Positions 3,304-25,756 of a stretch of DNA of 64,000 bases are shown piece by piece. Numbering within the stretch: position 1 is the stretch's first letter; the number at the start of each line of letters is the position of its first letter. The translations under genes were made by a program, and so were the position numbers. The DNA is from a gamma proteobacterium symbiont of Ctena orbiculata (GTDB lineage: Bacteria; Pseudomonadota; Gammaproteobacteria; Chromatiales; Chromatiaceae): the NCBI GenBank assembly GCA_003058495.1, contig QBVC01000008.1:19164-83163 (forward strand). Reading direction: 5' to 3'. The notes below the pieces were generated by a model. The model had not been told where the DNA came from. It ran no database searches and worked only from the letters and a program-made list of their open reading frames with translations.

Positions 3304-3333
3304 ACCTCAGAGATATCGGCGGATAGCGGCATC

Positions 3334-4839: not shown

Positions 4840-4853
4840 CAGGAATCAAGCAG

Positions 4854-5312: not shown

Positions 5313-5338
5313 CTAACTGATTATAAAGAGCCGAACAC

Positions 5339-6673: not shown

Positions 6674-6675
6674 CC

Positions 6676-8001
6676 ATGGATCATGACGACCCATTTGGCA
6701 TGAAGCCCAACGACGCCGGCGACCGCACCGTGATCCGACCCCGCCCCGGCGGCAAGGGACCCGCTTCGCAACCCCAGTCACCGCCACAGCCCAGCCAACC
6801 GGCGCCGCCTCCGCAGCGCTCAGGTCCGGCCCCGAGGCTGCCGACCCGCCAGGGGGCGAACAAGCTGGAGATCGCCGCCACTGCCCTGCTCTCCCTGCTG
6901 GGCCGCCTGCGTGAAACCCCATCCCATCCCGATCCGGCTGCCTTGAAGAGCAGCATCATCGAGAAGATCCGGGGGTTCGAACGCAATGCACAGGACCTTG
7001 GCGTGGACAAGGAGACCATCTTCTGGACCCGCTACGTATTGTGTACCGCCCTCGACGAGACCGTACTCTCCACACCCTGGGGCAACCAGAGCCTATGGCG
7101 GGACCAGAGTCTTCTGGTGACCCTGCACAACGAGGCCTGGGGTGGTGAAAAGTTCTTCCAGCTGCTGCAGAAACTGCTGCAGAATCCGGCCAAGAACATC
7201 GAACTGCTTGAAGTCATGTATATCTGTCTCTCGTTTGGATTCGAGGGACGCTTCAAACCCCTGCCGGACGGTTACGCACAGCTGCAGACCCTGCGCGACA
7301 ACCTCTATCGCACCATCCGCAACCACCACGAAGAGTATGAGCGCGACCTCTCCGGCAACTGGCAGGGTGTCTACCTGAAGCAGAATGCCCTGGTGCAATA
7401 TGTTCCGCTCTGGGTCGTGTTGGCCGTTTCCGGTGTGATCCTGCTGTTGATGTATTCGGGTTTCAATCTCAGCCTGAACGTGAAATCGGATCCGGTGCAT
7501 GCCGAACTGCACAACATTGCACGCAATGTGAAAACCGTTGTCGAGCGCAAGCCGCCACCGGCACCGGAACCTGAACTGACGCTGCGCGTCCTGCTGGCGA
7601 ATGAGATAACCCAGGGCAGTGTCGACGTGGTGGAGGATTACAGCGAAGGCCGGGTGCGAATTGCCGGAGACGGTCTGTTCGCCTCGGGCAGCGGCGCCGT
7701 GAAGGCGCAGTTTCTACCGCTGCTGAGCAAGATCGCGGCCGCCATGGACCAGCTGCAGGGGGAGATTGTGGTCGAAGGCCATACCGATAACGTGCCGATA
7801 CGCAGCCTGCGCTTCCCCTCCAACTGGCACCTCTCCCGGGCCCGCGCCGAATCGGTGGCGAAGATAATGGCAAGCGACCTTGCCAGTCCGAGCCGCATCC
7901 AGAGCCTGGGCAGAGGCTCGGCGGAACCCTTGACCTCCAACAACACCAACGAGGGTCGAGCACGCAACCGGCGTGTGGAGATCACCCTGATAAAACCATA
8001 G
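6676..8001 (+). CDS. tssL: T6SS TssL/DotU with C-terminal OmpA-like peptidoglycan-binding domain
   Basis: RYVLCTALDETV, GGEKFF and CLSFGFEGRF DotU motifs, one TM segment, then GHTDNVP..NWHLSRARA..NRRVEI (OmpA). ATG at 6676 follows the tssK stop. Confidence 0.95.
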   Translation: MDHDDPFGMKPNDAGDRTVIRPRPGGKGPASQPQSPPQPSQPAPPPQRSGPAPRLPTRQGANKLEIAATALLSLLGRLRETPSHPDPAALKSSIIEKIRGFERNAQDLGVDKETIFWTRYVLCTALDETVLSTPWGNQSLWRDQSLLVTLHNEAWGGEKFFQLLQKLLQNPAKNIELLEVMYICLSFGFEGRFKPLPDGYAQLQTLRDNLYRTIRNHHEEYERDLSGNWQGVYLKQNALVQYVPLWVVLAVSGVILLLMYSGFNLSLNVKSDPVHAELHNIARNVKTVVERKPPPAPEPELTLRVLLANEITQGSVDVVEDYSEGRVRIAGDGLFASGSGAVKAQFLPLLSKIAAAMDQLQGEIVVEGHTDNVPIRSLRFPSNWHLSRARAESVAKIMASDLASPSRIQSLGRGSAEPLTSNNTNEGRARNRRVEITLIKP

Positions 8002-8011
8002 GCGTCGACGC

Positions 8012-11000: not shown

Positions 11001-11593
11001 TCGGACGCTTTTTCGGTCCCGGCGGCATGATGGACAACTTCTTCAACAGCTATCTGCAGGATTTTGTCGATACCTCCCGCCGCAGCTGGCGCTGGAACGC
11101 GGCGGGCAACCGCGCCCTCGGCATACCCACCGGCACCCTGAGGCAGTTCCAGCGGGCGGCGGTTATCCGCGACGCCTTCTTCAGCGGCTCCGCCCAGGAT
11201 CCGAAGATCAACTTCGAGGTCAAACCGCTGAGCATGGATACCACCATCACCCAGATCACCCTGCTGCTCAATCAGCAGCGCGTCAGGTATAACCACGGCC
11301 CCGCCCGCTGGAACCGTATGATCTGGCCCGACGACTCCGGGATCAGCGACACCAAGATCCTGTTGGCGCCTCCCGCCGGAAACAAGCCTTCCGGACTGAC
11401 CGAGGATGGTCCATGGGGCTGGTTCCGAATCATCGACCAGGCAAAGACCGAGGCCACCGACTCACCCGAGACCATTAAGGTCGAGTTCAACGTGGGCGGA
11501 CGCAAATCCCGTTTTATGTTGCGTGCCAGTGGCGCCCTCAATCCCTTCAAGCTCAAAGAATTGGCAGATTTCCGGTGTCCGAACAGACTCTGA
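8012..11593 (+). CDS. tssM: T6SS membrane subunit TssM/IcmF
   Basis: 1193 aa; N-terminal TMs, LPWYMFIGPPGSGKTT Walker A, GGTRNCDWWFT, DTAGRY, and GPWGWFR near the C-terminus. Confidence 0.97.
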   Translation: MRAIMGIIKNRWFVAILGLIAISIIIWLVGPLIAIAGIEPLGSVLGRLIAILLVVLIWLGMELRRFLTARKKNQQMLESVVGQKDQPQIHARESDEEVAILSQRLDEAIRILKESKIGGKQDRQFLYQLPWYMFIGPPGSGKTTALLNSGLHFPLADKLGNDAVQGIGGTRNCDWWFTDDAVLLDTAGRYTTQDSYEEVDRAAWMGFLDLLKRHRKRRPINGALVAISVEDILQLTELERLSHAKAIRMRVKELIDHFGIRFPIYILFTKCDLLAGFNEFFENMGREERSQVWGMTFPLTDKADEDGGISRFQDEFRALEKRIDVRLMDRLEQERDTKRRILIYSFPQQFSALREAAESFLYEAFSANRFQETPMVRGIYFTSGTQEGTPIDRLLGSMAQEFGLNRQIAPAFSGSGRSFFINRLFKDLIFPEAHLAGVNTRVEKRRAWLQRMAYVGAISLAVLAGVAWFTSYSRNQSYIDQVAIQANAAEEKVNAVAPDDLTLANVVPALDSVRRIPGGYADQEAEIPWLMGLGLYQGDKLGSEAVSAYRTSLKNLFLPRIILSLENQLTRPGNNPDYLYEALKVYLMFDDSEHFDAETVKTWMLLQWQLNLPGAENAQARQALAGHLDALLEMLPMTPTLPLDQDLIAHVRGNLLRVPLADRVYNRMKRTTASGSVPPIRLTQAIGADADQVFSRRSGEPLDKEIPALFTYEGYHKLFLKDHLEIANKLLEEKWILGPELEKIVGETDLVKLSARVKELYYEEYIRTWEQQLADIRVKPFANMRQAVDILNIISGPSSPLRRYLKLVQEQTSLSRLPGGAKKAAELVERNTSGITRRLASILQVAPDASEAASEDSLLTTPVDQHFASLNRMIQAQEGEQAPLERTMEMLNELYAHMSSIASAGNQSNQAFNVARDPSAGGSVISRLKLEAKRQPGHLAAMLNTLADGSSNLTISGVRAHLNSVWTTQVLPFCQRSLTGRYPLDRDSSREVTIGDFGRFFGPGGMMDNFFNSYLQDFVDTSRRSWRWNAAGNRALGIPTGTLRQFQRAAVIRDAFFSGSAQDPKINFEVKPLSMDTTITQITLLLNQQRVRYNHGPARWNRMIWPDDSGISDTKILLAPPAGNKPSGLTEDGPWGWFRIIDQAKTEATDSPETIKVEFNVGGRKSRFMLRASGALNPFKLKELADFRCPNRL

Positions 11594-12375
11594 ACAGCAC
11601 ATTGAACGAGGATGTCCCCGGGTTCTACGGCAAGATACCCTCCCTCGGGGATTTCGTAACGAGACGCCTGCCGCGCGGGTTTATCGCGCCCTGGGAGACC
11701 TGGATGCAGGAGGCGATAGCCAACAGCCGCGAACAGCTTGGTGATTTCTGGCTGGACAACTATCTCACCAGCCCCCTGTGGCGATTTGCCCTCACCCCCG
11801 GGATCTGCGGAGAACACGGCTGGGCGGGCGTGCTGATGCCGAGCGTCGACCGGGTCGGACGCTACTATCCCTTTACCCTGGCGGCGAGGCTCGATCCGAA
11901 ATTCAATCTCTTCCTCTTCATGGAGGAGTCCGAGCCCTGGTTTGCCAGGATGGAGGAGCTCGCGCTCTCCTGCCTTGAAGACGGCTTCCAGATGGAGTCG
12001 TTCGAGCAGCAGCTGCGCGCTGTCGGTCTGCCCAGTGCCGAACGCGAACCCCACCCGCCGCAACCGGAGGCCGCGACCACGGCACTCAACAACGCCTGGC
12101 ACGCCAAACTGGAGGAGCAGTCATCCCTGCGCAGCATCTATCCGCTGTTCCTTCCCCATCTGATGAAGAAGCTGCTCTTCGCCTACAGCCTCTGGTGGAC
12201 CCAGGGATCCGAGCGCATCTCGCCCTCTCTGCTGCTGTGCCAGGGTCTGCCCCAGATCAAGGGCGCCAGCGCCTTGATCGACGGCGCCTGGAGCCAGCAC
12301 GGCTGGGAGGAGATCGAAACCGGGACCTACGCACTGGGGGGGTTGTCCAATATCGAAGCCTCGCAGTCTCAATGA
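11575..12375 (+). CDS. tagF: T6SS-associated protein TagF
   Basis: GFYGKIPSLGDFV and LMPSVDRVGRYYPFT motifs. Start uncertain (GTG 11575 or TTG 11602). Confidence 0.92.
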   Translation: MSEQTLNSTLNEDVPGFYGKIPSLGDFVTRRLPRGFIAPWETWMQEAIANSREQLGDFWLDNYLTSPLWRFALTPGICGEHGWAGVLMPSVDRVGRYYPFTLAARLDPKFNLFLFMEESEPWFARMEELALSCLEDGFQMESFEQQLRAVGLPSAEREPHPPQPEAATTALNNAWHAKLEEQSSLRSIYPLFLPHLMKKLLFAYSLWWTQGSERISPSLLLCQGLPQIKGASALIDGAWSQHGWEEIETGTYALGGLSNIEASQSQ

Positions 12376-13127
12376 GCCTCAACAGCTTCTACTGGGTCTC
12401 GGCGCACATGAGCGACAAGGGAAAGGTGCGCTCAATCAACGAAGACGCCTGTCTCGATCGGGCCGACCTGGGGATCTGGGCGGTGGCTGACGGCATGGGC
12501 GGGCATGCCGCCGGCGACATGGCCTCGGAAATGATCGTCAATGAGCTCAAATCGATCACTCCGGGGGATTCGCTGGGGGCGCTGGCCAGCGATGTGGAGC
12601 AGCGGCTGCAGCATGTCAACCAGCAGCTGCTGCTTGAGTCGCAGCGACGCGGTGGCGAGATCATCGGGTCCACCGTGGTCACCCTGCTCACCTACCAGGG
12701 CTACTGTATCTACCAATGGGCGGGAGACAGCCGGATCTACCTCTACCGCCGCGGCAGACTCAAACAACTCAGCCGCGACCACAGCCAGTTGGAAGAGCTG
12801 ATCGAACAGGGTCTGGTCACCCTGGACCAGGCGGAACAATCCCCGATCGCCAACTACATCACCCGCGCCGTGGGCGCCAGTGAGGAGTTGGAGCTGGATG
12901 CGGAGATCTTCGAGCCTTGCGACAGCGACCTGTTCCTGCTCTGCAGCGACGGCCTGAACAAGGAGGTCAGCGACGGGGAGATTGCCGAGATCCTGGGCGG
13001 CTACAGCTTTCAGCAAGCGGCGCAACAGCTGATCCAGCTGGCGATGGAGCGCGGCGCACGGGACAACGTAACCCTGGTACTGGTGCAGGCGAGTTCGACC
13101 CAGGCAAACGGGCCTGAACAGGAATGA
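12372..13127 (+). CDS. pppA: PP2C-family Ser/Thr phosphatase (PppA/TagG-like)
   Basis: GKVRSINEDA, VADGMGGH, AGDSR, LLCSDGL and GARDNVT PP2C motifs; ATG 12372 overlaps the tagF stop (ATGA). Confidence 0.9.
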   Translation: MSLNSFYWVSAHMSDKGKVRSINEDACLDRADLGIWAVADGMGGHAAGDMASEMIVNELKSITPGDSLGALASDVEQRLQHVNQQLLLESQRRGGEIIGSTVVTLLTYQGYCIYQWAGDSRIYLYRRGRLKQLSRDHSQLEELIEQGLVTLDQAEQSPIANYITRAVGASEELELDAEIFEPCDSDLFLLCSDGLNKEVSDGEIAEILGGYSFQQAAQQLIQLAMERGARDNVTLVLVQASSTQANGPEQE

Positions 13128-13167
13128 TCTGCTATATTGGCTTACAAACTACCGATAGGACGGCAGT

Positions 13168-14568
13168 ATGCTGGAATCTAACATGTTCACCATGAGACAT
13201 AACGTTGTGAAACCGGGCCGCGAGAACATAGAAGATTTCACCAAACTCCTCCTCATCACCCTGTTGGCAATAAGCATCTCCGCCTGTGTTGCCCTGGGAC
13301 CGCAGCAGGAACCGGAACCGGTCGATGCGGAGGAACCAGAGGAGGAGGTAGTGACCATTCCTCCGCCGCCTGACTCACTGACCCCTTCACAGCGGGTACG
13401 CAAGGCGCTGCAGCAGTTGGAGCAGGGCGACTACGGGAACGCCCGGTTGCAACTCACCTGGGCATTACAGGAGAAGCCCACATTGCAGATCGCCGCCAAT
13501 CTGCTGCAACAGATGGATGTCGATCCCATCGACCATCTCGGCATGAAGAGTTTCTTCTACGATGTGGAGCCGGGTGACTCGCTCTCCATAATCGCCAAAA
13601 AATTCCTCAACGATCCGCTAAAGTTTGTCGTTCTGGCCCGCTACAACAAACTGGAGAATCCCAGCAAACTGGCCCCGGGTCAGCGTATCCGCGTGCCAGG
13701 TGTGATGCCGGAGAGAAAAAGAGCAAAACCCAAGCCAAAGCCACAACGATCAGAACCTGTTGCCCTGCCGCAAGCGTCCGTCGAAGCAACACCACCCCCT
13801 GCCACCACTGCCGAGCAGACAGCCTTGACGGCCGAGCCCGTGATGGAAGAGAGCGAGCCAGAACCGACCCAATCACCCGCCATGGAGGCAATCCCCATGG
13901 CAGCTACGGAGGTGACCGAGGAGCCGCCGCAACAGCAAGCGGAACAGCCTGTCGAAGAGGCGCCGGTAGCGATGACCGTCGAGGAGGCGCTCAGCTCTGC
14001 GCGAGGCCTGCATGGAGAAGGAAACCTCAGCGCGGCGATCTATCTGCTGGAAAACGAGAGCAGCCAGCATCCCGATTCAAAGGAGCTGCAGAAACTGCTT
14101 GCCGATTATTACAATGAGCATGCAGATCAACTCATCAACCGGGGCGAGCTGAACGATGCGCGGACAACCTTGGAAAAACTGATCATCCTTGACTCATCCG
14201 ATGATCAAGCGATCAATAAACTGATCCTGGTAGAGGACAGTATCGAGGCAGGAAAATTAATGCTGGCCGCACAGGATCAGCAAAACGCAGGCAACCTGGA
14301 ACAGGCCTACCAGACCTATGGTCAAGTCCTCACCTACGACCCGGAGAACCAAATCGCGAAGGATTCGCGACTGGTTGTCCGCGATCAGCTGACTGACAGC
14401 TATCATCGCCGCGCCATGCAGCTTTTCAGAAAGCAGGAGCTGGATGATGCGATTGGATTCTGGAACAAGATCCTGGAGTTGAATCCGAACCACTCCCTGG
14501 CCCCGGGTTACAAGGCACGGGCGTTGGAGATGAAACAGCAGCTGCAGAAGATCGAACCCGGCGGATGA
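13168..14568 (+). CDS. LysM and TPR domain lipoprotein
   Basis: Hydrophobic signal ending ISAC; LysM (YDVEPGDSLSIIAKKFL..NKLENPSKLAPGQRIRVP); Pro/Glu-rich linker; C-terminal TPR-like helices (AIGFWNKILELNPNH). Start may be 13183 or 13192. Confidence 0.8.
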   Translation: MLESNMFTMRHNVVKPGRENIEDFTKLLLITLLAISISACVALGPQQEPEPVDAEEPEEEVVTIPPPPDSLTPSQRVRKALQQLEQGDYGNARLQLTWALQEKPTLQIAANLLQQMDVDPIDHLGMKSFFYDVEPGDSLSIIAKKFLNDPLKFVVLARYNKLENPSKLAPGQRIRVPGVMPERKRAKPKPKPQRSEPVALPQASVEATPPPATTAEQTALTAEPVMEESEPEPTQSPAMEAIPMAATEVTEEPPQQQAEQPVEEAPVAMTVEEALSSARGLHGEGNLSAAIYLLENESSQHPDSKELQKLLADYYNEHADQLINRGELNDARTTLEKLIILDSSDDQAINKLILVEDSIEAGKLMLAAQDQQNAGNLEQAYQTYGQVLTYDPENQIAKDSRLVVRDQLTDSYHRRAMQLFRKQELDDAIGFWNKILELNPNHSLAPGYKARALEMKQQLQKIEPGG

Positions 14569-15009
14569 TATCGCCTTCTCTGTAATTACACGCCAAGCCA
14601 GTCACACATCGGTCAACCCTGGCTGGAAAACCGGTTACTACAACGTAAGCCTGTTCGATATCAACGACAATCAAAGACTCGTGGCAAGCAGTCGTTATCT
14701 CATTGACAGTGTAAGTGAGACTGAGAGTCAGGCATCGCAGGTAGACCGGGATGTCATTCACAACCTCATTTCCAATGGGCTTGCCATATCCAAGCCATAC
14801 TGAAATACCACTTTAATTCATAATTCATGCTGGCAATAATTCCACATGTTTTCGTCAAAGGTTGATATTTGGTAGCGCGATATCAGCGTCTTTCTTGGCT
14901 ATACGGTGATCACAATGCAGTTACGATTTTGAGCGTTATAGTTGCCTCTCCCCCCCAAAGAAGTTATATAACCTGTTGGTCCATATGCAACGATATGATG
15001 GTGGGTTAT

Positions 15010-15393
15010 ATGCTCAAATCACTGTTCAAGCAATTCCTGATATACCTTCTCTCCCTAAACATGGCAATCATCGGCTTTCCCGCCATTTCGCTAGCGGCTC
15101 CAATAGATACCATGACCGTCATCCAGCTGGATGACAGGCAAAAGAGTATCGACCAAATCCGTTCAACCATGGCCCGTGACGAGGTTCGCAGTTCCTTGCT
15201 GGAAATGGGCGTCGATCCTCAGGCAGTTGAACTACGCCTGGATGCGCTCACTGACCATGAGCTGTATGTACTCAATCAACAAATAGATGAACTGCCTGCC
15301 GGCGGCAGCGTCCTGGGTGTACTCGGCGCACTACTGATCGTGCTAATCGTATTGGAACTGCTGGGCGTCACTAATGTATTCACCAAGCTTTAA
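15010..15393 (+). CDS. PA2779-family protein
   Basis: Signal-like N-terminus, LLEMGVDPQAVELRLDALTDHEL, LPAGG plus C-terminal TM; directly upstream of a PA2778-like peptidase. ATG 15010 preferred over the ORF-track start. Confidence 0.8.
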   Translation: MLKSLFKQFLIYLLSLNMAIIGFPAISLAAPIDTMTVIQLDDRQKSIDQIRSTMARDEVRSSLLEMGVDPQAVELRLDALTDHELYVLNQQIDELPAGGSVLGVLGALLIVLIVLELLGVTNVFTKL

Positions 15394-15446
15394 GTCTGGA
15401 TGATATCAGCTGGGTTAAGGACCGACCCACTGATATTCAATCCGCA

Positions 15447-16463
15447 TTGAACGCGATCCCGGGCAAACCGAACGAGGTGGCCAAGCCATACCTCGCTTCG
15501 TTACTGTTATTGCTGCTTAGTGGTTGCGCAAGTCATCCACCCCTACTCTCTCCTTTGCTCCCCTCGGCGTCAACGCATGCCATGCTGGAGTTGGAGGCCA
15601 CCCCGTTCCATGCGCAAGAGAAGTATCAGTGCGGTCCGGCGGCTCTCGCCACCCTGCTTGAAGATTCAGGGGTTCCGGTGACTGCCGAATCCCTGGTGCC
15701 GCTGGTCTACCTGCCGGAGAAAAAGGGCAGCCTTCAAATGGAGATGGTGGCGGTCAGCCGTCGTTACCAGCGGATCCCCTACGTTATCAGACCCGATCTG
15801 AACTCACTGCTCGCGGAGTTGCAGGCAGGCCGACCCGTGCTGGTGCTGCAGAACCTCGGATTCACCCAATTCCCTGTCTGGCACTACGCGGTGGTGATCG
15901 GCTACTCGGCAGAGAGGGATGAGATGATCCTGCGTTCCGGGGTCACCCGACGCGAGGTCCTCGACGCGCATCGCTTTCTCGCTACCTGGAAACAGTCGGG
16001 CCACTGGGCCATGGTGCTGCTGAGACCCGGTGATTTACCCGCTGTGCCAGACCAGCTGCCCTACTTGAAGGCAGTGGCCGCCATGGAACGATCGGCCCCC
16101 GCCGAGCACCTCATCGCGGCTTACCGTGCAGCCCTGGATCATTGGCCGGAGAGTGCAATCGCAATGTTCGGTTTGGCGGTCGCCCAGCACGCCAAGGGGG
16201 ACCTGGCGGCGGCTGAACTGAACTATAGGAGGCTCCTGGAGGCAGCGCCTGACTTTATCGCAGCCCACAACAACCTGGCCGAGGTATTGGCCGACAGGGG
16301 TTGCTATAGCGAGGCCAGGGCAGTGATTCAACAGGCATTGCAGAAAGAGAGCGGCGCCTTGCAGCAGGAGCTGAGGCAAACTGAACACGAAATCGTGAGA
16401 AGAATAAACAATCATCCGTCACAACCCTCTCCCTGCCGACGGCCGAGGATTCCGCATGAATAG
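15447..16463 (+). CDS. PA2778-family C39-like cysteine peptidase lipoprotein with TPR
   Basis: Lipobox LSGC, catalytic QCGPAALA (Cys) and WHYAVVIGY (His), C-terminal TPR (AHNNLAEVL). Alternative start GTG 15477. Confidence 0.85.
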   Translation: MNAIPGKPNEVAKPYLASLLLLLLSGCASHPPLLSPLLPSASTHAMLELEATPFHAQEKYQCGPAALATLLEDSGVPVTAESLVPLVYLPEKKGSLQMEMVAVSRRYQRIPYVIRPDLNSLLAELQAGRPVLVLQNLGFTQFPVWHYAVVIGYSAERDEMILRSGVTRREVLDAHRFLATWKQSGHWAMVLLRPGDLPAVPDQLPYLKAVAAMERSAPAEHLIAAYRAALDHWPESAIAMFGLAVAQHAKGDLAAAELNYRRLLEAAPDFIAAHNNLAEVLADRGCYSEARAVIQQALQKESGALQQELRQTEHEIVRRINNHPSQPSPCRRPRIPHE

Positions 16464-17096
16464 ATGATCTCTTCAAATACCCGCGAGAAGAGTGACCCAT
16501 GAGTCGTGGATCTCCCGCTATCCAGTTGCCGAATTTGACGGAGAAAAAACCCAGTTAAATCCTATGTTTCTGACATAAAATCGAACATGTCAACTTGATG
16601 GATTGGTTGTCTCGTCTACTATTGATCTGTAATATGGCGGGCAAGAATTAGCAGTAGCATGCCAAACGGATCGATTGGCTAAGTTTTGTGGTTTTTTTAC
16701 CACTAAGATGATGGATCATCATCGACATCGGGGCTGTCAAGCATAGGTTAAAACCTCACTGCAACCGATTTATACCTTGGGTAGTACCTGCAGATATCCC
16801 TGTCTCATGCAGCGGAGAGATACGGTACTGCTTGAATACAATGGAACAATAGGGAACTACAGCATTGCCGGGAAAGACAATGGCACAATGGATACCACTC
16901 TGTGACAGCGCTGCTGCCCAGCTGCCGTCAACCAATCACACCCTATCAGCGATTTGCATCCCTGGGCGCATTTGTCCATCAAATCGCCGACAGGATCCCA
17001 AAAAACTCAGGATATATTGCTTTCGATCAATGATCTAGTTAATTAAACATGGAAGATTACGCCGCATGGACATAATTGAACAAAGCATAATAATTC

Positions 17097-17840
17097 ATGG
17101 AAGCCGTGATTGAGTCTCTTACCCTGACCCATCTTCTCTTTGCTGCAGTTGTCATCAGCCTGGCCTACCTGGTGCGGGGTATCGCCGGCTTCGGCTCCGG
17201 CCTTATTGCGATCCCACTGCTGGCCCTGATATTGCCGCTGACCACGGCTGTACCGCTGATCGTCTTTCTCGATTACATGGCCTCGGCCAGTCATGGCATC
17301 AAACACCGGGAGGCGATTAAATGGAATGAGATCCTCTCCCTGTTGCCCTTCGCGGTGGTCGGTGTCTTAACCGCCCTCTTTATTTTCAAATCAGTGGACA
17401 TGGAGGCCCTGAAAATAGGCTTGGGCGCCTTTATTTTGGTATTCGCCGTCTATTCGCTCTTCTCCTTTTCCGGCAAGGAACTGATCTCTTCGGTTTGGTC
17501 GGTACCCGCAGGCAGCATGGGCGGATTGATCGGCACCCTGTATGGGACCGGCGGCCCCTTTTATGTCCTCTACCTGAAATTCCGCAAGATAGAGAAAACC
17601 CAGTTCAGGGCCACCTTCGCCACCATCTTTCTGCTCGATGGCGCAGGTCGCCTCGCGGGCTATCTGTTTACCGGCTTTTTCACCCTCGACCTGGTGTTGA
17701 TGATGGCGGTGGCCATTCCGTTGATGGTAATCGGGATGTTCATCGGCGGCCGCATCCATACCAACATGTCACAGCAAACCTTCCAGCGCGCTATCAGCAT
17801 GCTGCTGGTCTTCAGTGGCTTGGCGCTGTTGCTGAAGTAG
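17097..17840 (+). CDS. TauE/SafE family sulfite exporter-like membrane protein
   Basis: Multi-TM protein with GIAGFGSG and GTLYGTGGP repeats typical of TauE/SafE. Confidence 0.85.
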   Translation: MEAVIESLTLTHLLFAAVVISLAYLVRGIAGFGSGLIAIPLLALILPLTTAVPLIVFLDYMASASHGIKHREAIKWNEILSLLPFAVVGVLTALFIFKSVDMEALKIGLGAFILVFAVYSLFSFSGKELISSVWSVPAGSMGGLIGTLYGTGGPFYVLYLKFRKIEKTQFRATFATIFLLDGAGRLAGYLFTGFFTLDLVLMMAVAIPLMVIGMFIGGRIHTNMSQQTFQRAISMLLVFSGLALLLK

Positions 17841-17897
17841 CCTCGAAATAGGATTGCTGAATGGTTTTTGAACCGACTGGACTCGTCTCAACAGGCC

Positions 17898-18671
17898 CTA
17901 GTTAAACTCATTCACCAAGGCCCCGATACCTTCGATCACCACCTCCACGGTACAACCCCGTTCCATCGGCCCCGCTCCAATGGAAGTGCCGCAAGCGATG
18001 ATATCGCCAGGCCGCAGCGGCATGTCATGGGAAATACGACTAACGATCTGGCGCGGCTTGAAGAACATATCGGTCACGGGATAGTTTTGTAATTCTGCGC
18101 CGTCAACCAGGGTCCTGACCGACAATGTTTCCGCATCCAGACCCGTTGCAATAACCGGCCCGACGGCGCTAAAGGTGTCAAAGCTCTTTGCCCTGGTCCA
18201 ATGCACGAACAAGGGGTCCTCCCGCAGCAGGCCGCGGGCAGTGACATCATTGACACAGGTGTAGCCGAACACATAATCATCGACATCGTCCTCACTGATA
18301 TTATGGCACTGCTTGCCGATGACGATGCCGAGCTCACCCTCGTAGACCACTGGACCGTCATATCCCTCCGGTCGCCTGATTGTCCCACCCGGGGGGAGAA
18401 AGGATGTGCCTGCCTTCATGAAATAGAGAGGATGGTTGGGTCTAGACCAGCCCTCCTTCGCCGCCCTGGAATGAAAGTTGTTCCACAGGGCGATCATCGT
18501 TGTAGGTTCACAGGGGGTCAACAGCTTGACTGCCTCCAGGGGCAGTGTCTGTTCTGTCGCTACCGCCCCGTTGTACATGTCCCCCTGGTAGGTGGTTATT
18601 AGATTCTCGCTCAAGACGCCGAAGCCCCTCTCTCCCTGATAGTCATAACGAACCCACTGTTTCATTCCCAT
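17898..18671 (-). CDS. Fumarylacetoacetate hydrolase family protein
   Basis: YEGELGIVIGK, GYTCVNDVTAR, KSFDTFSAVGP and PGDIIACGT FAH motifs. Confidence 0.92.
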   Translation of the reverse strand: MGMKQWVRYDYQGERGFGVLSENLITTYQGDMYNGAVATEQTLPLEAVKLLTPCEPTTMIALWNNFHSRAAKEGWSRPNHPLYFMKAGTSFLPPGGTIRRPEGYDGPVVYEGELGIVIGKQCHNISEDDVDDYVFGYTCVNDVTARGLLREDPLFVHWTRAKSFDTFSAVGPVIATGLDAETLSVRTLVDGAELQNYPVTDMFFKPRQIVSRISHDMPLRPGDIIACGTSIGAGPMERGCTVEVVIEGIGALVNEFN

Positions 18672-18886
18672 TTAGCTCCTCTAATTCCTATTTGAGTAAT
18701 ATTATTCCTCTATTGCCTTCAAATAAAGGCTTTCCGCTCAAGAACATACCCCCAGTGCCACTATAGAGTTTGATGATCGACAGACTCAATCAGAGGTACT
18801 CAAGATTGTTACCGTCAGGATCCCTACAAGCAGCAGTTGCCGCCATAAACAGAACAAGCAGGAAGCCAAATCCTTCATCCGATGAC

Positions 18887-19114
18887 ATGATGATTCAGAA
18901 ATTCAGTCTCCTATTGACAGGTTTTACGATCGGCGCCCTCTATTCGCCGCTGCTGGTCTATGCCCTCTATCTTCGGCACCAATATACCGGGGCCACGAAC
19001 CTGGTGGCGCTGCATTGGTATGAGCTGATACTGGTTCTCACCCTTATGCTGCTGCCGTTGGCGGCGTTGAAGCTGCTCAAGATCGACTGGACTTCGCGAG
19101 ACATACCTGGCTGA
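18887..19114 (+). CDS. Small hypothetical membrane protein (2 TM)
   Basis: 75-aa ORF with two hydrophobic stretches; no recognisable family; start uncertain. Confidence 0.4.
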   Translation: MMIQKFSLLLTGFTIGALYSPLLVYALYLRHQYTGATNLVALHWYELILVLTLMLLPLAALKLLKIDWTSRDIPG

Positions 19115-19126
19115 AGCGGGTTCGGT

Positions 19127-20053
19127 CTACATGGATTGAAAGTTACGCAGCCTCAGGCGGCTCTTCTTGTCGTCCGGATCGAACTTGAGGGCATACTCCC
19201 AATACTTTATCGCATGCTCAGGCTCATTGCGGGAACTCCTCACCCCTTTGAGGTAGAGCGCCCTGCCATACGCCTTGCGCTGTTGCTGAATTTTATCAAG
19301 CCTGTCGGCATCGCTGGTGAAAACGCGCTCCGCCCGTTGCAGATAGTCCAGGGCATCCTTGTAGTTTTCCGCATCGAAAGCGGCGCCTGCCTGATCGAGA
19401 AGAATCTTCGAGAGAAGATCACGCACCTCCCTGTCCTTGGGGAATTTCTTTAAATGCGTCTCGATCTCCTTGAGATATTCCCCTAGGTTTGCCTGCCTCC
19501 CTTCCGCCTGCAGTATCTCCTGACGCGAGTAGATATAGGCCTCTTCGTGAAAACCCTTGGCCAGCTTTTTCTTTTTTGTTCTATTGTTGTAATTGCTGTT
19601 TGAACGCGCAACCTTCTTTTTCATTGCTGCCTTGGATGCCCGCTTGTCGAGTTCCCGCATGGCCTCTAGCGCCGATTTGTGCTTTGGATTGAGACTGAGG
19701 GCTTTTAGGTAGTAGCGCCGAGCCTTGGTTAACCGGCCCTGGCTGACGGCCTGCTTTCCCTGCCTCATCATTTTCTCGCTTTGCCGGTTTATCTTCGCTT
19801 CAACACGCTTGATCGCGGCGTTGATCTTGCTATCCCGTCGCGATACTGTCCTCGCCACCTTGAGATTGTACAGGGCGCCTTGCAGATCACCCTTTTTCTC
19901 CCGGGCTTCGGCGCTACGCAACCAGGTGGCCGGTCTGCCATAGTCGCCCGATATCACGCCCTTGGCCGACTGGGTGGATGAACAACCGCTGCCAAGCACC
20001 AGCAGCAATATGCCAAGTAGACTGAATAGCGACGCCGGTGGACGCATCATCAA
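19127..20053 (-). CDS. TPR-repeat lipoprotein
   Basis: Signal peptide ending LGSGC; TPR-like units (YLKALSLNPKH, YWEYALKFDPDD); Lys-rich linker; start overlaps the deacetylase stop. Confidence 0.75.
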   Translation of the reverse strand: MMMRPPASLFSLLGILLLVLGSGCSSTQSAKGVISGDYGRPATWLRSAEAREKKGDLQGALYNLKVARTVSRRDSKINAAIKRVEAKINRQSEKMMRQGKQAVSQGRLTKARRYYLKALSLNPKHKSALEAMRELDKRASKAAMKKKVARSNSNYNNRTKKKKLAKGFHEEAYIYSRQEILQAEGRQANLGEYLKEIETHLKKFPKDREVRDLLSKILLDQAGAAFDAENYKDALDYLQRAERVFTSDADRLDKIQQQRKAYGRALYLKGVRSSRNEPEHAIKYWEYALKFDPDDKKSRLRLRNFQSM

Positions 20054-21036
20054 CGCAATGCCTTGAAGGTCACCAGGCTCTTCTTGAATGCCTGCATGTC
20101 CCTGTCGCCAAAGATCATGGTGCGGTGAAGAAGATAGGGGTAGCTGAAGGCGGCATTGGATTGCCGCTGCACGGTCAATCCCAACAACAAGCCGTTCGCC
20201 TGCAGCTGTTCGATCACCAGATCATTGCTGTCACCGAACGGGTAGGCGTAATAGAGCGGTCTCTCCCCCAGGTACTTCACCAATCTCTCATTCGGTATCG
20301 AGATCTCCTGGCGCACCCTGCGTCGATATTGGCCGGGGCTCTCACCCGCCTGCCTGACAGTCAGGTTGCTGTGGGTCTTGGAGTGGGGCTGGATATTGAT
20401 CAAGCCGCTTTTTATCATGGCGTCGAGTTCTTGTGTCTTCAGGCCGCCGTTGTTTAGGTAGTCGCTGTAGACAAACACGGTAGCGGGATAACCATACTCC
20501 TTGAGAATGGGGAAGGCCTCTTTGTAGATAGAGCGGTGGCCATCATCGATGGTCAACACCACGGCACGTTTTGGCAGTTGTTTTTCCCCCTTGAGAAATC
20601 CGACCAGGTCGCTCAGCGGTATCACCCGATAGTCATTTTTATCCAGGTACTCCATCTGCTTTCTGAACATCGCCGGCGTCACTTCCATGCGGTCGCTGCG
20701 CCTGCCGAAACGGTGATAGCAGAGGATAGGTACAGTCTGGTAGCCTTTGTATTCGATCCCGGTCGGATTCTCCATCTTCAACGGAATGACAATCTCACGG
20801 CCTTCGGCCACCGGATTGGGATGATTGGCATCCTCGATCAACCAATACAGGCTCTCATCACGGAGGTAACGCCTGGCCAGCGAGCGCGCATCATCGCTAC
20901 CGACGCGCAGAACGATGAAATCCCTGTCTTTCGCGATAACCTGGCTGCCGGAGGAACGAAGCACGGGAGAGGAACAAGCGGTAAACAGCAATGCAAAAAT
21001 GATCAGTGGCGTGATTTTCGTCAACAGTGCTCGCAT
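20050..21036 (-). CDS. Polysaccharide deacetylase (CE4/NodB) lipoprotein with degenerate LysM-like N-domain
   Basis: Lipobox LFTAC; SLARRYLRDESLYWLIEDAN..GREIVIP (LysM-like); CE4 motifs TIDDGH, HSKTH, YAYPFG. ATG 21036 gives a canonical signal peptide. Confidence 0.85.
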   Translation of the reverse strand: MRALLTKITPLIIFALLFTACSSPVLRSSGSQVIAKDRDFIVLRVGSDDARSLARRYLRDESLYWLIEDANHPNPVAEGREIVIPLKMENPTGIEYKGYQTVPILCYHRFGRRSDRMEVTPAMFRKQMEYLDKNDYRVIPLSDLVGFLKGEKQLPKRAVVLTIDDGHRSIYKEAFPILKEYGYPATVFVYSDYLNNGGLKTQELDAMIKSGLINIQPHSKTHSNLTVRQAGESPGQYRRRVRQEISIPNERLVKYLGERPLYYAYPFGDSNDLVIEQLQANGLLLGLTVQRQSNAAFSYPYLLHRTMIFGDRDMQAFKKSLVTFKALR

Positions 21037-21120
21037 TGAGGTATACCTCGGCATTTGCGGTTGCAAACCTCCTGTATTGACAACTCCCAGGTTCCTTTCA
21101 TTGAAGATGCCAACAGACAA

Positions 21121-22908
21121 CTAGGTGTTGTTCTGCTTGGGCGGCATGATTCTTGTGGCATCATCGAACTCAGGGTCCGGCGCACTGAGTTCCTGTTCAT
21201 CCTGTGCCGGCGCCGGGGACGCTTGGATCTCCTGCTCATGCGCCATGTTGGTGGTATCGTCATCCCCATCGGTGATCTGCGTTACGGTCTGCTGCTGCAG
21301 CTGATGCTGGCACTCATCGCGCTGTTTCAGAAGCGTATCCGCCATTCTGTTGTATTCCGAAAAGAGCAATCCCAGTTCATCGTTTCGCTCCTTGTGGATC
21401 CGGTATCCCAGATTGCCATGATGCACATGGGCGATGGCCCGCCTGAGGATTCTTATCGGCACGGTAATACCGGTTGCCAGCAGATAAGCGACGATAACGA
21501 CCGTCAACACCACCGCAACCAGCAATCCCAGCATGGTGTAGAAAGTAAGGTCGGCTGCGGCGATAAGGGGTGTCTGGGAGAGGCCAAGCTGAACCATGCC
21601 GACCTGCTTTTTTTGGAAAACCAGAGGCGCCTGAAAATCGAACACCATCTCATCGTTCAGCTCTTTTTCTGATATCACCATGCCTTCGTCTTCGCGCAAC
21701 AGCTTCATCCCCTCCGCCGCCTCCTGTTTTTTGCCGACCTCTTCAATAGAGGTGCTGGCGCGCAGAACCTGCTTGTGATCGACAATCTTCAGGTAGCTGA
21801 TCTGTTGCCGCTGCTTGATCTCATGGACAAACGTCTCCAGCGCCACCCAGTCCTGGATCAATACCGCCTCGACGCTCTCCACCGCGATGAATTCCGCCAG
21901 CGAGCCCCCTGAATCCAGGGCCAGCTCGATCATCGCATCCACCTGTTTTCGATAAACCAGGTAGGACCCTAGAATCATCGCAATCGAGACCACGGCCGCC
22001 ATCACGGCGGTCCATTTGATACGCAGCGGCAGGATCTTCGATTCGCTGAGATGCTGCTGCTTCTCATCGATTTCGTGGACCACGCTGCGCAGTTCCGATG
22101 CAACCTCCTTGCCTGTCTGAAAGCGCTGCTCGGGTTTCTTGTTGAGCAGTTTTTCGACGATCTTTATCAGGCTGTGGGGGATCTCACCCTTCTTGTCCTT
22201 GATCGGCGCAGGATCCTCCTGCACGATCTTCATCAACAGCGAGGTGAGGGTCTCGGAGACAAATGGCTTCTCCCCGGTAATCAGCTGATAGAGAATGACA
22301 CCGAGGGAGAAGAGGTCGGAGCGTCCATCGACGGGAAAACCCTCGACCTGCTCGGGGGACATATACTGCGGGGTACCCAGGACCGCCCCCATCCGGGTGC
22401 GGTGCTCCTTGTTGGGTGAGTCCACATGGGCGATGCCGAAGTCGGTGATGCGGATGGTGTGGCCGTCGTCCGGGGAGATGATGTTGCCCGGTTTCACATC
22501 CCGGTGGACGATCCCGCGGTTGTGGGAGTAGTCCAGGGCCTCCGCCAATTGAATGCCGTAGACCACCGCCTCTCTGATGGAGATGGGGGCTTTGGATTCC
22601 ATCATCTCCTCGAGCGTCCTGCCCTCGAGGAATTCCATCGCTATGTAGGGCCCCTGCTCGACCTCCCCGACATCGAAAATGGTGACGATATTGGGATGGG
22701 TGAGCTTTCCCGCGGCCTTCGCCTCCTGCAGGAAGCGGTAGCGATACTCCGGATCCGTGGCAACCTCCCCGCGCAGGAGTTTGATCGCCAGGGTGCGGTT
22801 GATCTCGGGGTCGAAAGCCTTGTAGACAATTGACATCGCCCCCTCGCCGATCTCCTCGATGAGATTGAATCGGCCTATGGTATCCGGCATGGGCTGTTGG
22901 TTCTCCAA
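21121..22908 (-). CDS. Membrane Ser/Thr protein kinase (Hanks type) with periplasmic domain and HAMP; PpkA-like candidate
   Basis: GEGAMSIVY, AIK, HRDVKPGN, DFGIA, GTPQYMSPEQ all intact; TM-periplasmic-TM; HAMP (PIRILRRAI..RNDELGLLFSEYNRM); acidic tail. Confidence 0.93.
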   Translation of the reverse strand: MENQQPMPDTIGRFNLIEEIGEGAMSIVYKAFDPEINRTLAIKLLRGEVATDPEYRYRFLQEAKAAGKLTHPNIVTIFDVGEVEQGPYIAMEFLEGRTLEEMMESKAPISIREAVVYGIQLAEALDYSHNRGIVHRDVKPGNIISPDDGHTIRITDFGIAHVDSPNKEHRTRMGAVLGTPQYMSPEQVEGFPVDGRSDLFSLGVILYQLITGEKPFVSETLTSLLMKIVQEDPAPIKDKKGEIPHSLIKIVEKLLNKKPEQRFQTGKEVASELRSVVHEIDEKQQHLSESKILPLRIKWTAVMAAVVSIAMILGSYLVYRKQVDAMIELALDSGGSLAEFIAVESVEAVLIQDWVALETFVHEIKQRQQISYLKIVDHKQVLRASTSIEEVGKKQEAAEGMKLLREDEGMVISEKELNDEMVFDFQAPLVFQKKQVGMVQLGLSQTPLIAAADLTFYTMLGLLVAVVLTVVIVAYLLATGITVPIRILRRAIAHVHHGNLGYRIHKERNDELGLLFSEYNRMADTLLKQRDECQHQLQQQTVTQITDGDDDTTNMAHEQEIQASPAPAQDEQELSAPDPEFDDATRIMPPKQNNT

Positions 22909-23130
22909 ATCCCTTCTCCTACCTTACTACGCTGTCCGGGACATGCAGATCTGTCTCGAAACGTGCATATTTTCATGTCTCGTCTATGCTACCCCTGATA
23001 GAGTGTAGCAAATGGTGTTAATTTAAAGAAAATTGTATTGACGATCTGAGCGCCATTGATTAGCGTTCATGGAGTAGCGGAAAATCCACCCGACAGATGG
23101 ACTGGACAGACAAAAACAGCAGGCAAGCAG

Positions 23131-23922
23131 ATGAACGAAACCTTCGATATCCCAAGAATCCTTGAATTACGCAAACTGACAAGGTCAATATCGGAAAAGA
23201 TCGAAACCGACTTAAGTGGCTACTTAACCACCCTTGCCCCAATCTTCTCGCCCGCACCGATCCTGGGTGAGTATGTCCGGGGCGGCTCCAAGGCACCTGT
23301 GAAGGGAGCGGAAATCGCTTTTCGCGACCTGAAGAACCGGTATCAAACCATCGCCGGAAAAAAACCGTTTCTGCTGGAGAGAGAGCTCTCCACCCCGCTG
23401 GATGTCTTCGCGGCCACGCCGACCCTGACCGCCGTGGAGTACCCCTATAGCGCGGAACAGGGGAGCAAGTCCGCATCGCTCACGGTGACATCCCCATTGA
23501 AGTGGTATCTCTCCTATCCGGACCAGCACCCTAAAAAGCTGCTGGAAATGCTCGGGGGCAATCGCAACCAGCTGAAAGATGAATTATCCCATGCCTTGCT
23601 GCAGTGCCTGACACTGAGCCTGGTGCTGGAGAAGCGCCCAGGACTCGCAAGCATACTCCAAGGCCTGCGCTTCGAGCTGCAGACAAGCCATCATGAGGGG
23701 CTGGGCGAACTGCCGGTGGTTATGATCTCCTGCCCCCTGAAGACCCTGTTGCCGCCTGACGACATCATTATTCAAAATACCGAGATCTCCGGTATTCCAT
23801 CCTTCGAAGAGATCATCAATATCAACGATATCCGGGAACTCTCCGATCCCATGCAGCAAGGCATCCTTGCGATCACGAAAGAGGTCTCGCCAGCGATCTA
23901 CCGGGAGATCGCTGCTGCTTGA
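23131..23922 (+). CDS. Hypothetical protein divergent from the kinase
   Basis: 263-aa soluble-looking ORF (MNETFDIPRILELRKLTR...); no family recognised with certainty. Confidence 0.7.
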   Translation: MNETFDIPRILELRKLTRSISEKIETDLSGYLTTLAPIFSPAPILGEYVRGGSKAPVKGAEIAFRDLKNRYQTIAGKKPFLLERELSTPLDVFAATPTLTAVEYPYSAEQGSKSASLTVTSPLKWYLSYPDQHPKKLLEMLGGNRNQLKDELSHALLQCLTLSLVLEKRPGLASILQGLRFELQTSHHEGLGELPVVMISCPLKTLLPPDDIIIQNTEISGIPSFEEIININDIRELSDPMQQGILAITKEVSPAIYREIAAA

Positions 23923-24073
23923 AACTCCAACCGGTTTCATGGCTCAAGCCGTACAGAGATGATAGCCGGAGAAGTAACTTTAACAATTCAGGGTTTTTCA
24001 CGCTCACGGTTGTCAATACAATCACCCTGTTCAGTATTGATGACTCTCTTTAGATCAAGAATAGGAAATACAC

Positions 24074-24574
24074 ATGGCTACAATCACCCTTGAAGGCAAT
24101 CAAATCAACACCAATGGCGACCTCCCTGCCGTGGGCTCGGATGCGCCCGATTTCTCCCTGGCCGCTGCCGACCTTTCAGATGTCTCTTTAAGTAACTATG
24201 CAGGCAAGAGGAAACTGCTCAACATCGTACCGAGCCTCGATACGGGTGTCTGCGCGACTTCAACTGTCAAATTCAATCAGGCAATGGGCGATAAGGGCAA
24301 TTCAGTCGCACTGGTGATCTCGGCGGATCTCCCTTTTGCCCAGGGACGTTTCTGCAGCGCCGAGGGAATCGATAATGTCGTCTCGCTGTCGATGATGCGC
24401 AACCGAAATTTCGCAAAGGATTATGGCGTCCTGATAACCGACGGCCCATTGGCCGGTATCTGCGCCCGAGCCGTGGTGGTTCTGGATGAGAACAATAAGG
24501 TCCTCTATACCCAGTTGGTGCCGGAAATCGTACAGGAACCCGACTACGATCAGGCCCTGGCCCATCTCAACTAA
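24074..24574 (+). CDS. tpx: Thiol peroxidase Tpx
   Basis: [12 protein letters not shown] and [13 protein letters not shown] motifs. Confidence 0.97.
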
Positions 24575-24649: not shown

Positions 24650-25756
24650 TCAGCGCGGGTAGTAAGGAGTATAGCCTTGCTGCGACGGGGGGTAGCCGCC
24701 ATAGGGCGTATAGCCCCTGCCAGGCCATGCCGGACGCGGTGGCGGGGAAGCCATGGCTTCCTGTAGCTCGCGCTCGGCCTGCATCAGGTTCCGCATCGCC
24801 TCCATCTCCGCCCTCGCGGCGTCCCGGAGCTCATCAAACTCCTTGAGGATCTTACTCACCGACTCCGCATGCAGATCGCGGATGGACTGGGGCACCTGCT
24901 GATCTCCAGTTGCCGGGGCCGCGCCCTGAGCGGCATCCGCTGTTGTCTCAGCTCCAGCTGCAGCCGTCGTCTGCCCGGAGGATTGATCGGAACCGGATGC
25001 GGTCTCGGTCGCGGCTGCAGCCTGCTCCTCGTCGACAGCCGGCGCCGACACCATCGGGGCCTGCTGTTCCACTTCGCTGACACTGGCAGCGGATCCAGCA
25101 CCAGCCTCCGCCGCTGCTTCAGCCGCCGTTTCCGCATCATCTCGCGCTGTAGCGCTCTGTTCCGCCGCGCCCTCCTCCGCTGCTGTTGCGGGTGCCGTGG
25201 ATGCACTCTCAACGACCTCCTGCTCCACCGCGCTCGTCGAGGCGGTGTCCTCCGCTTGCGGGTTTTTGGCCAACGATCTGATGTACATGAAGGCCAGTAT
25301 GATGATGACGAGCCAGAAAATGACTTTTAACCCGAAGCCACCTGCGCCCTTAGATTGAGTTGTCATCGAGGAATCCTCCGCTGTTGTTTCTTTTTTAAGC
25401 TCAGTACGAACAACGACATTCGAAGTGTCCGGCTTGCCAGCGGTCGATGCGGCGACTTTTGCCGGCGCCGGTTTCGCGGCCATGGCGCTTGCGGCTGCGA
25501 CGGCCGTCGGGGTCGCCGACTTCGATTCCGTCTTGGCGGCGGAAACGGGAGGCGTCTTCGCCGAAGCGGCCGCTGCGGGAGTTTTCACCGCCGCCGCACT
25601 CTTTTTTGCCGCAACCTTTTTCTTCGTCGTTGCCTTTTTCTTTGCAACCTTCTTTTTTGCGCTCTTTTTCTTGGCAACCTTCTTCTTGACTGCCGCTGTC
25701 TCTGTCGCCGGTTCCTTCCCTGCCTTGTCATCTGTATTGGTTGTCTCATCAGCCAT
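24650..25756 (-). CDS. Low-complexity single-TM protein: Lys/Ala-rich N-terminus, acidic Ala-rich domain, Pro/Gly/Tyr tail
   Basis: KKKVAKKK repeats, TM FGLKVIFWLVIIILAFMYI, coiled-coil-like segment, PPRPAWPGRGYTPYGGYPP tail; ends just before a terminator. Confidence 0.75.
   Translation of the reverse strand: MADETTNTDDKAGKEPATETAAVKKKVAKKKSAKKKVAKKKATTKKKVAAKKSAAAVKTPAAAASAKTPPVSAAKTESKSATPTAVAAASAMAAKPAPAKVAASTAGKPDTSNVVVRTELKKETTAEDSSMTTQSKGAGGFGLKVIFWLVIIILAFMYIRSLAKNPQAEDTASTSAVEQEVVESASTAPATAAEEGAAEQSATARDDAETAAEAAAEAGAGSAASVSEVEQQAPMVSAPAVDEEQAAAATETASGSDQSSGQTTAAAGAETTADAAQGAAPATGDQQVPQSIRDLHAESVSKILKEFDELRDAARAEMEAMRNLMQAERELQEAMASPPPRPAWPGRGYTPYGGYPPSQQGYTPYYPR

Follow-up and report, generated by a model that had tools for sequence, protein, structure and literature searches.

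In the H1 type VI secretion system (T6SS) of Pseudomonas aeruginosa, the genes ppkA-tagTSRQ follow pppA, and a membrane kinase of the Hanks type, a PP2C phosphatase and an FHA protein form a switch for which outer-membrane damage is the input of TagQRST. Another kind of envelope sensor, the histidine kinase WalK (YycG), reads cell-wall cleavage products. Elsewhere, single envelope accessories encoded beside ppkA/fha, RtkS in Serratia and TssW in Acidovorax citrulli (PMC12607579), act on the periplasmic side of the kinase and control T6SS activation or positioning. A 2026 review of T6SS accessory factors lists TagQRST and RtkS as the only upstream activators of the kinase, and it mentions no deacetylase, LysM/TPR lipoprotein or HAMP kinase (PMC13584744). 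Inputs of the T6SS phosphorylation pathway have been described mainly in Pseudomonas (TagQRST), Serratia (RtkS) and Acidovorax (TssW). Here we describe a locus from Candidatus Thiodiazotropha, a sulfur-oxidising gill symbiont of lucinid clams, within a window of 64,000 nucleotides (contig QBVC01000008.1, positions 19,164 to 83,163) from the symbiont of Ctena orbiculata. The locus holds a four-gene cassette encoding a Ser/Thr kinase, a CE4 deacetylase lipoprotein, a TPR lipoprotein and a LysM-TPR lipoprotein, which in this clam symbiont most likely constitutes an undescribed sensor arm that tells the T6SS when to assemble. No description of such a combination turned up in full-text literature searches that paired T6SS with polysaccharide deacetylase, LysM, HAMP or Cache, in agreement with the preliminary description of this DNA, whose author knew of none.

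The genome has a single T6SS, with genes in the order vgrG / TssC-like, tssA, tssB, tssC, hcp, tagJ, tssE, tssF, tssG, clpV, fha, tssJ, tssK, tssL, tssM, tagF, PP2C, LysM-TPR. The part from vgrG to tssG, including the TssC-like paralogue, lies upstream of the window on the same contig, while the remainder, including the TagF, PP2C and LysM-TPR genes, spans positions 553-14568 (+) of the window. The fha-tssJ-K-L-M-tagF-pppA order, together with the presence of tagJ and clpV, is that of H1-T6SS. Three elements of a threonine-phosphorylation pathway, a PP2C phosphatase, an FHA protein with a T6SS_FHA_C domain and TagF, are all encoded within the cluster, and despite their presence no kinase gene is found there, as the preliminary description had said in calling it a kinase-less phospho-cluster. 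The fourth element, a membrane kinase of the Hanks type genetically linked to the T6SS, is encoded 8 kb from pppA, in a kinase-CE4-TPR module that sits 6.0-9.8 kb past the PP2C gene. The relevant features of the window, with domain matches given as E-values, are as follows.

21121-22908, minus strand: Hanks-type Ser/Thr kinase, 595 aa, candidate PpkA-equivalent of the T6SS
20050-21036, minus strand: CE4 lipoprotein, N-terminal LysM-like domain plus PgaB/IcaB-type de-N-acetylase, 328 aa
19127-20053, minus strand: TPR lipoprotein, lipobox LGSGC, TPR_2 3.1e-11
13168-14568, plus strand: LysM-TPR lipoprotein, last gene of the T6SS operon, LysM 3.3e-08, TPR_2 9e-10
14869-19114, no strand assigned: insert of about 4.5 kb that splits the cassette, outside the system
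553-11593, plus strand: T6SS genes clpV, fha, tssJ, tssK, tssL (with OmpA domain) and tssM
3334-4839, plus strand: Fha (TagH), T6SS_FHA_C (PF20232) 7.7e-58, FHA (PF00498) 2.8e-16
11575-12375, plus strand: TagF, post-translational T6SS repressor, TagF_N 7.1e-49, TIGR03373
12195-13127, plus strand: PP2C phosphatase (PppA/TagG equivalent), NF033484 Stp1_PP2C 3.7e-61, PF13672

All four open reading frames (ORFs) of the preliminary description, namely the kinase, the CE4 protein, the TPR lipoprotein and a divergent gene beyond the kinase, exist as described, and the second LysM-TPR lipoprotein that it had placed at the end of the T6SS cluster is present as well. The three co-oriented genes and this LysM-TPR gene are one conserved cassette of four. 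We scanned species genomes with the CE4 protein, which gave 16 loci whose contexts were read by tblastn with the proteins of the window, and metagenomes with an alignment of CE4 homologues, which gave 80 more loci and at least 575 confirmed relatives. Metagenome contexts end at contig edges, and tblastn with one query set may miss divergent T6SS or FHA genes. Of the 52 metagenome loci with enough sequence, 47 had the kinase gene immediately 5′ of CE4 in the same orientation; a TPR match (21-47 % identity) directly 3′ of CE4 was found in 28 of the 52, and a convergent LysM-TPR homologue within 3 kb downstream of CE4 in 23 of 29. On the strength of these counts the unit is kinase > CE4 > TPR >< LysM-TPR. 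Its carriers are Gamma- and Betaproteobacteria, and Desulfobacterota have a variant of it.

One layout is frequent among these loci, reading kinase+ CE4+ TPR+ LysM-TPR- PppA- Fha-, and it is the layout of the window minus 4.5 kb (14569-19126). A relative at 58 % identity (L115/L116) retains the unsplit form, PP2C > LysM-TPR >< TPR < CE4 < kinase, followed by the divergent gene. Here, as in H1-T6SS, a membrane Hanks kinase with a periplasmic domain and lipoproteins follow pppA. In the lineage of this symbiont the cassette is split by the 4.5-kb insert, so that LysM-TPR remains convergent with the kinase-CE4-TPR operon with the insert between them. The inserted genes encode a PA2779-family protein, a PA2778-family C39 peptidase-TPR lipoprotein, a TauE exporter, an FAA-hydrolase-family enzyme and a small ORF with two transmembrane helices. 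The insert is present in close Thiodiazotropha genomes (L013-L018) and absent both from L115/L116 and from distant loci embedded in T6SS clusters.

Linkage of the cassette to T6SS genes recurs in distant genera. In Sedimenticola, the genes run Fha-kinase-CE4-TPR-TssJ-K-L-M; in Nitrosospira, kinase-CE4-TPR and a convergent LysM-TPR are followed by Fha, PppA, TagF and TssM; and in an unclassified gammaproteobacterium the order is TssL-M-TagF, PppA, Fha, kinase-CE4-TPR, LysM-TPR. At a further locus (L053) the cassette lies between a tssJKLM-tagF operon and LysM-TPR-pppA-fha, and it is also T6SS-linked in two other genomes (G345 and G060). Of 15 non-redundant loci flanked on each side by 8 kb or more, 8 carry T6SS genes within 10 kb, whereas by our estimate about 1 % would be expected by chance for any gene of a 4-Mb genome that has a single T6SS cluster. 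In the CE4 tree the linked state appears in every major proteobacterial clade, interspersed with unlinked loci, and the well-supported branches require four or more changes of linkage state. The link to the T6SS that the preliminary description had proposed is thus borne out by kinase-CE4-TPR trios inside or beside the Fha, PppA, TagF and TssJKLM genes of distant genera.

Module and T6SS are also present or missing together at the level of the genus. Among 24 genomes of the genus, which are kin and represent few independent events, the three without TssK also lack kinase and CE4, while the kinase is found in 20 of the 21 with TssK; where contigs allow, kinase and TssK lie 11-43 kb apart on one contig. 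In a class-level sample, an even draw of 400 genomes of which 19 % have TssK, a CE4 orthologue occurs in seven genomes, five of them outside the genus. Two of these five have the cassette 12-15 kb from tssK, and one has its T6SS on another contig. Overall, TssK is present in 5 of the 7 genomes with the cassette and in 71 of the 393 others (Fisher p = 0.003; 0.047 without the symbiont's own genus). The module is not found mostly in genomes without a T6SS, an outcome that the preliminary description had named as contrary to its proposal. Taken together, the cassette is very probably a conserved unit genetically tied to the T6SS switch.

The kinase is built differently from PpkA. Its Hanks-type catalytic domain (Pkinase 3.9e-52) occupies approximately residues 1-290 and is followed by a first transmembrane helix (~297-318), a periplasmic sCache-like domain (~319-458), a second transmembrane helix (459-477) and a HAMP domain (477-527; 2.8e-08), such that the two helices flank a periplasmic domain of 140 residues. 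The sCache_3_2 match scores 27.6 bits, slightly below its cut-off of 28.4 bits. The last 65 residues (530-595) form an acidic, Gln-rich tail that is conserved in close relatives alone. Because two transmembrane helices, sCache_3_2 and HAMP take the place of the single helix and periplasmic vWA domain of PpkA (TagE), the protein stands outside the PpkA family proper. The same holds against the PpkA proteins of the RtkS and TssW systems, which have one transmembrane helix and their C-terminus in the periplasm. We also considered whether another Hanks kinase of the genome could be the true PpkA, and rejected this, as none of the five others has a vWA domain or lies near the T6SS.

We modelled the sensor half (residues 290-535) with AlphaFold from an alignment of 32 orthologues. 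The model, with a predicted local distance difference test (pLDDT) of 79, runs from a long helix through a PAS/Cache-type sheet and another long helix to the HAMP domain, and its top fold in the PDB is the sensor half of WalK (9a5d_A, E 3.4e-12, TMq 0.79), followed by sensor domains of WalK, CitA, DcuS and DctB. The NCBIfam model HK_WalK also matches residues 356-548. The sensor half of this inner-membrane kinase (transmembrane helix, sCache, transmembrane helix, HAMP) is therefore predicted to be built like that of the cell-wall sensor kinase WalK, and in both systems extracytoplasmic accessory proteins are encoded, YycH/YycI in the case of WalK. The likeness ends there. Pfam detects neither HisKA nor HATPase_c in the protein, whose output is the N-terminal Pkinase domain, and because the DHp/CA domains are lacking it is not a WalK-type histidine kinase, although the sensor half matches. 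In WalK the histidine kinase is C-terminal to the sensor, whereas here a Hanks kinase precedes it; furthermore, the host is Gram-negative and the accessory lipoproteins are unrelated to YycH/YycI.

The CE4 protein would supply the enzymatic part of the cassette. Its reading frame is open up to a TTG at 21120 (20050-21120), and the true start is likely the ATG at 21036, which yields a protein of 328 aa and agrees with the homologues. A lipobox (LFTAC) is followed by a polysaccharide deacetylase domain (PF01522 Polysacc_deac_1, 4.5e-22), and profile searches of the PDB find IcaB (7e-31) and PgaB (6e-30). The NCBIfam PgaB and IcaB models match with scores far below their cut-offs. The predicted structure (pLDDT 89.3, predicted template modelling score 0.82) has the NodB fold, with Foldseek matches to PgaB, PplD, IcaB, BpsB and the Bacillus lipoprotein deacetylase BA0330 (TMt 0.73-0.84, E ~1e-17). 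These relatives share the CYH histidine, the Asp-Asp pair and the His-x3-His motif, and the protein belongs to the PgaB/IcaB subgroup, not to the PgdA type. Residues C21 (lipobox), H108 (CYH), D164, D165, H218 and H222 (His-x3-His) are invariant in 19 homologues at 40-80 % identity, where the CYH histidine is taken to be the counterpart of the PgaB catalytic acid and residue roles are assigned by PgaB. The metal-binding motifs reported in the preliminary description are thus indeed intact, and since neither the lipobox cysteine nor any of the catalytic positions ever varies among these homologues, the enzyme is apparently active.

The N-terminal 60 residues of the CE4 protein form a divergent LysM domain. 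Pfam alone gives weak support, matching LysM in 3 of 19 homologues with a best E of 0.009, while alignment of this region to the LysM domain of the LysM-TPR family by hhalign gives strong support (99.1 %, E 4.9e-19), and the model has a beta-alpha-alpha-beta core consistent with LysM. The earlier LysM-like call for this domain holds on these grounds. The following gene overlaps CE4 at the junction cgTTGATGATG; the 4-nt overlap given previously applies if the TPR gene starts at the TTG, and becomes 1 nt if it starts at the ATG. In distant loci the TPR protein is conserved only in its N-terminal 130-140 residues, and its gene is sometimes short or missing. Together with CE4, the TPR and LysM-TPR proteins are predicted to be outer-membrane lipoproteins facing the periplasm. 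Searches of PDB sequences with the TPR protein, LysM-TPR and the divergent gene product returned generic or designed TPR matches or nothing.

How, then, does the locus compare with the described T6SS switches? It shares with H1-T6SS the logic of kinase, PP2C and FHA protein, with Fha as the presumed reader and substrate of the kinase. In contrast to H1-T6SS, no TagR-like (FGE-sulfatase), TagQ-like or TagTS ABC genes follow pppA in the window, and the CE4 deacetylase, TPR and LysM-TPR lipoproteins stand instead of TagQRST. Like RtkS and TssW, these are envelope accessories that would act on the periplasmic side of the kinase; RtkS and TssW, compared here by their published descriptions, are one protein each, and neither is reported to have an enzymatic or LysM domain. 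In the symbiont, the cassette is probably the sensor and kinase arm of the T6SS threonine-phosphorylation switch, in place of PpkA-TagQRST, and on balance we favour a kinase that gates this T6SS through Fha or TssL. The LysM lipoproteins would sit on peptidoglycan or another N-acetylglucosamine glycan, on which the deacetylase would act. A change in that glycan would reach the periplasmic sCache domain of the kinase through protein contact or a small product, and the activated kinase would phosphorylate Fha and/or TssL, leading to T6SS assembly, with PP2C and TagF counteracting it. For the input we propose the condition of a wall glycan, where TagQRST has outer-membrane damage as its input, and we give this somewhat less than an even chance. 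The kinase substrates, the direction of signalling, the substrate of CE4 and the nature of the signal are all inferred.

A narrower version of this proposal, less likely than not, is a sensor of peptidoglycan state. Here, the LysM lipoproteins and CE4 would read or process wall glycan that has been exposed or cut, for example by the cell-wall-degrading effectors of a neighbour or during host contact, and would signal to the WalK-like sCache domain, possibly through an enzyme product such as acetate or a de-N-acetylated muropeptide. Assembly of the weapon would then be set off by wall damage, rather than by outer-membrane damage as for TagQRST, and the same enzyme-coupled sensor could be re-used with other FHA outputs in bacteria without a T6SS. 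The evidence favours a role in sensing over the alternative in the preliminary description, in which the module protects the wall or licenses it. If the proposed sensor role is correct, this widespread cassette would be a concrete, testable candidate with an enzymatic, wall-binding front end, and a rare case in which a WalK-like Cache-HAMP sensor is joined to a Hanks kinase. In lucinid symbionts, the cassette hints at a possible means of controlling competition among symbionts or contact with the host; Hcp is in the top 100 expressed genes common to Ca. T. endolucinida in three host species (PMC13137333).

Several observations weigh against the cassette as an arm of the T6SS switch. The kinase operon of this genome has lost its contiguity with the T6SS, the gap between them reaches 30-43 kb in other Thiodiazotropha, and the kinase has no vWA match. 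One T6SS-positive member of the genus (G006, in 360 contigs) shows neither kinase nor CE4, and TssK was not found in two of the five carriers outside the genus in the class-level sample (G244, 97 % complete; G072, 86 % complete). At seven non-redundant loci no T6SS gene lies within 10 kb, which on metagenome contigs is a statement about the locality, not about the organism. At one such locus (L077) housekeeping genes and a GGDEF gene surround the cassette, and at another (L058) the four genes adjoin an adenylate/guanylate cyclase-FHA fusion (6151-7035, -) that is divergent from the kinase. In the Desulfobacterales the variant cassette lies on a different contig from tssK of the same genomes. 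Lastly, the PgaB/IcaB subgroup of CE4 enzymes is best known for exopolysaccharide, not peptidoglycan.

Some of these observations bear on an alternative in which the cassette is a general unit of envelope or cell-wall homeostasis, a Hanks analogue of WalK that has lipoproteins as accessories and signals to a nearby FHA protein, with the T6SS as one output; in this genome, after its separation from the T6SS, it may then control something else. The WalK-like fold of the sensor half, the carrier genomes without detected TssK and the cyclase-FHA fusion all speak for it. So do two other loci, G336/L112 (G336:C19:41503-42102) and L032, where a PP2C gene, a tandem-FHA protein and two LysM-TPR copies stand beside the cassette, and FHA-domain matches near 7 of about 20 unlinked loci. 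These neighbours suggest interchangeable FHA outputs for the cassette. At the level of the family this alternative agrees with our best explanation, in which the cassette appears to be a general FHA-coupled envelope sensor with the T6SS switch as its most frequent partner; the two differ only for this genome. Here, the genus gains and loses the cassette together with the T6SS and keeps both on the same contig, the fourth cassette gene still closes the T6SS operon, and the T6SS has Fha and PP2C but no alternative candidate kinase. We therefore regard a role apart from the T6SS in this symbiont as unlikely. As for the gating module of the preliminary description, its linkage to the T6SS stands, but the cassette is not exclusive to the T6SS and also occurs without one, sometimes beside other FHA proteins.

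It is less probable still that the T6SS uses the lipoproteins as structural or wall-remodelling accessories and not as sensors, with the kinase merely co-located. On this doubtful reading, local de-N-acetylation of peptidoglycan by CE4 would permit or stabilise insertion of the membrane complex, or would render the wall of the producer resistant to muramidase-type effectors. Peptidoglycan de-N-acetylation does confer lysozyme resistance, and the CE4 protein combines an intact, invariant catalytic set with a LysM-type wall-binding domain. The T6SS is known to need wall remodelling (MltE, TagX; reviewed in PMC13584744). At one locus (L094:1-12375) CE4 and LysM-TPR stand back to back with a divergent tssA-tssB-tssC-tssC-tagJ-tssF-tssG run, in which tssC is present twice, and no kinase gene adjoins them. 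However, the tightest partner of CE4 is the kinase, as the counts above show, and not vgrG, effector or membrane-complex genes, and the trio stays with the kinase where no T6SS gene is near. The Desulfobacterales variant (L026-L028, e.g. L028:6884-12820) also speaks against this reading. There, the kinase is reversed, with its sCache domain N-terminal and the kinase domain C-terminal, and is divergently transcribed, while CE4 is followed by one fused TPR-LysM-LysM-TPR lipoprotein of 561 aa. Since the trio is kept with an sCache kinase of the opposite domain order, the sCache sensor and the lipoproteins are the constant partners, which points to an interaction with the sensor domain and argues that the lipoproteins would work on the sensor side.

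An exopolysaccharide modification operon of the poly-N-acetylglucosamine (PNAG) type under kinase control, unrelated to the T6SS and beside it by coincidence, is highly improbable: the closest characterised CE4 relatives are PgaB, IcaB and BpsB, and the Desulfobacterales variant has a GT4 glycosyltransferase and a hexapeptide (acyl)transferase among its neighbours (as well as DUF4197), but neither in the window nor in the proteobacterial loci that we examined does a pgaC/icaA-type synthase or porin gene adjoin the cassette, the 328-aa CE4 protein lacks the C-terminal domain of PgaB, and repeated embedding in T6SS clusters of unrelated genera cannot be coincidence. The CE4 protein further differs from its characterised relatives in its added LysM-like N-terminal domain and in having a Ser/Thr kinase and T6SS switch genes as its genomic companions.

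The GC content at third codon positions is 0.67-0.76 in the cassette genes and 0.72-0.85 in the T6SS core genes, in a genome of GC 0.575, which gives no clear sign of a separate origin for the cassette. Promoter and terminator scans over 12800-24200 did not rise above shuffled expectation and yielded no operon boundaries. Within the T6SS operon, the PP2C reading frame from the GTG at 12195 overlaps tagF by 181 nt; since the PP2C domain match covers nothing before residue 72, translation probably starts further downstream, close to where tagF ends.

Next to the kinase, and divergent from it, lies the remaining gene that the preliminary description had grouped with the module.

23056-23922, plus strand: divergent gene of unknown family, about 263 aa if the Met near 23131 is the start

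The protein has no Pfam or NCBIfam family, no transmembrane helix and no signal peptide, and its 91 homologues, all annotated as hypothetical, form a small family of proteins of about 263 aa. Relatives down to 47 % identity have the gene beside the kinase in divergent orientation, but it is outside the widely conserved cassette, so its grouping with the module does not extend that far; its association with the T6SS in distant genomes does stand. There, the family occurs in T6SS-type loci (L114, L117, L118, L119 and L126 were examined), and because of this all four genes of the original finding are T6SS-associated somewhere. In four loci the gene is directly followed by a VipA-VipB fusion-like protein of 537-655 aa, and three of these four also have PAAR and DUF4123 genes, with FHA (two loci) and FGE-sulfatase (two loci) genes nearby. 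In a Planctomycetes metagenome-assembled genome, the homologue is divergent from tssA-tssC-hcp. A homologue of the fusion-like protein is also encoded in the symbiont itself, where its gene lies between vgrG and tssA (G000:C12:9893-11332, L109; BLASTP 2e-36), and the divergent gene and the fusion-like protein may form a second undescribed accessory pair. Further along the window, a Lys/Ala-rich membrane protein (24650-25756, -) is syntenic in all close relatives but fast-evolving, at 39-84 % identity compared with 80-99 % for its neighbours.

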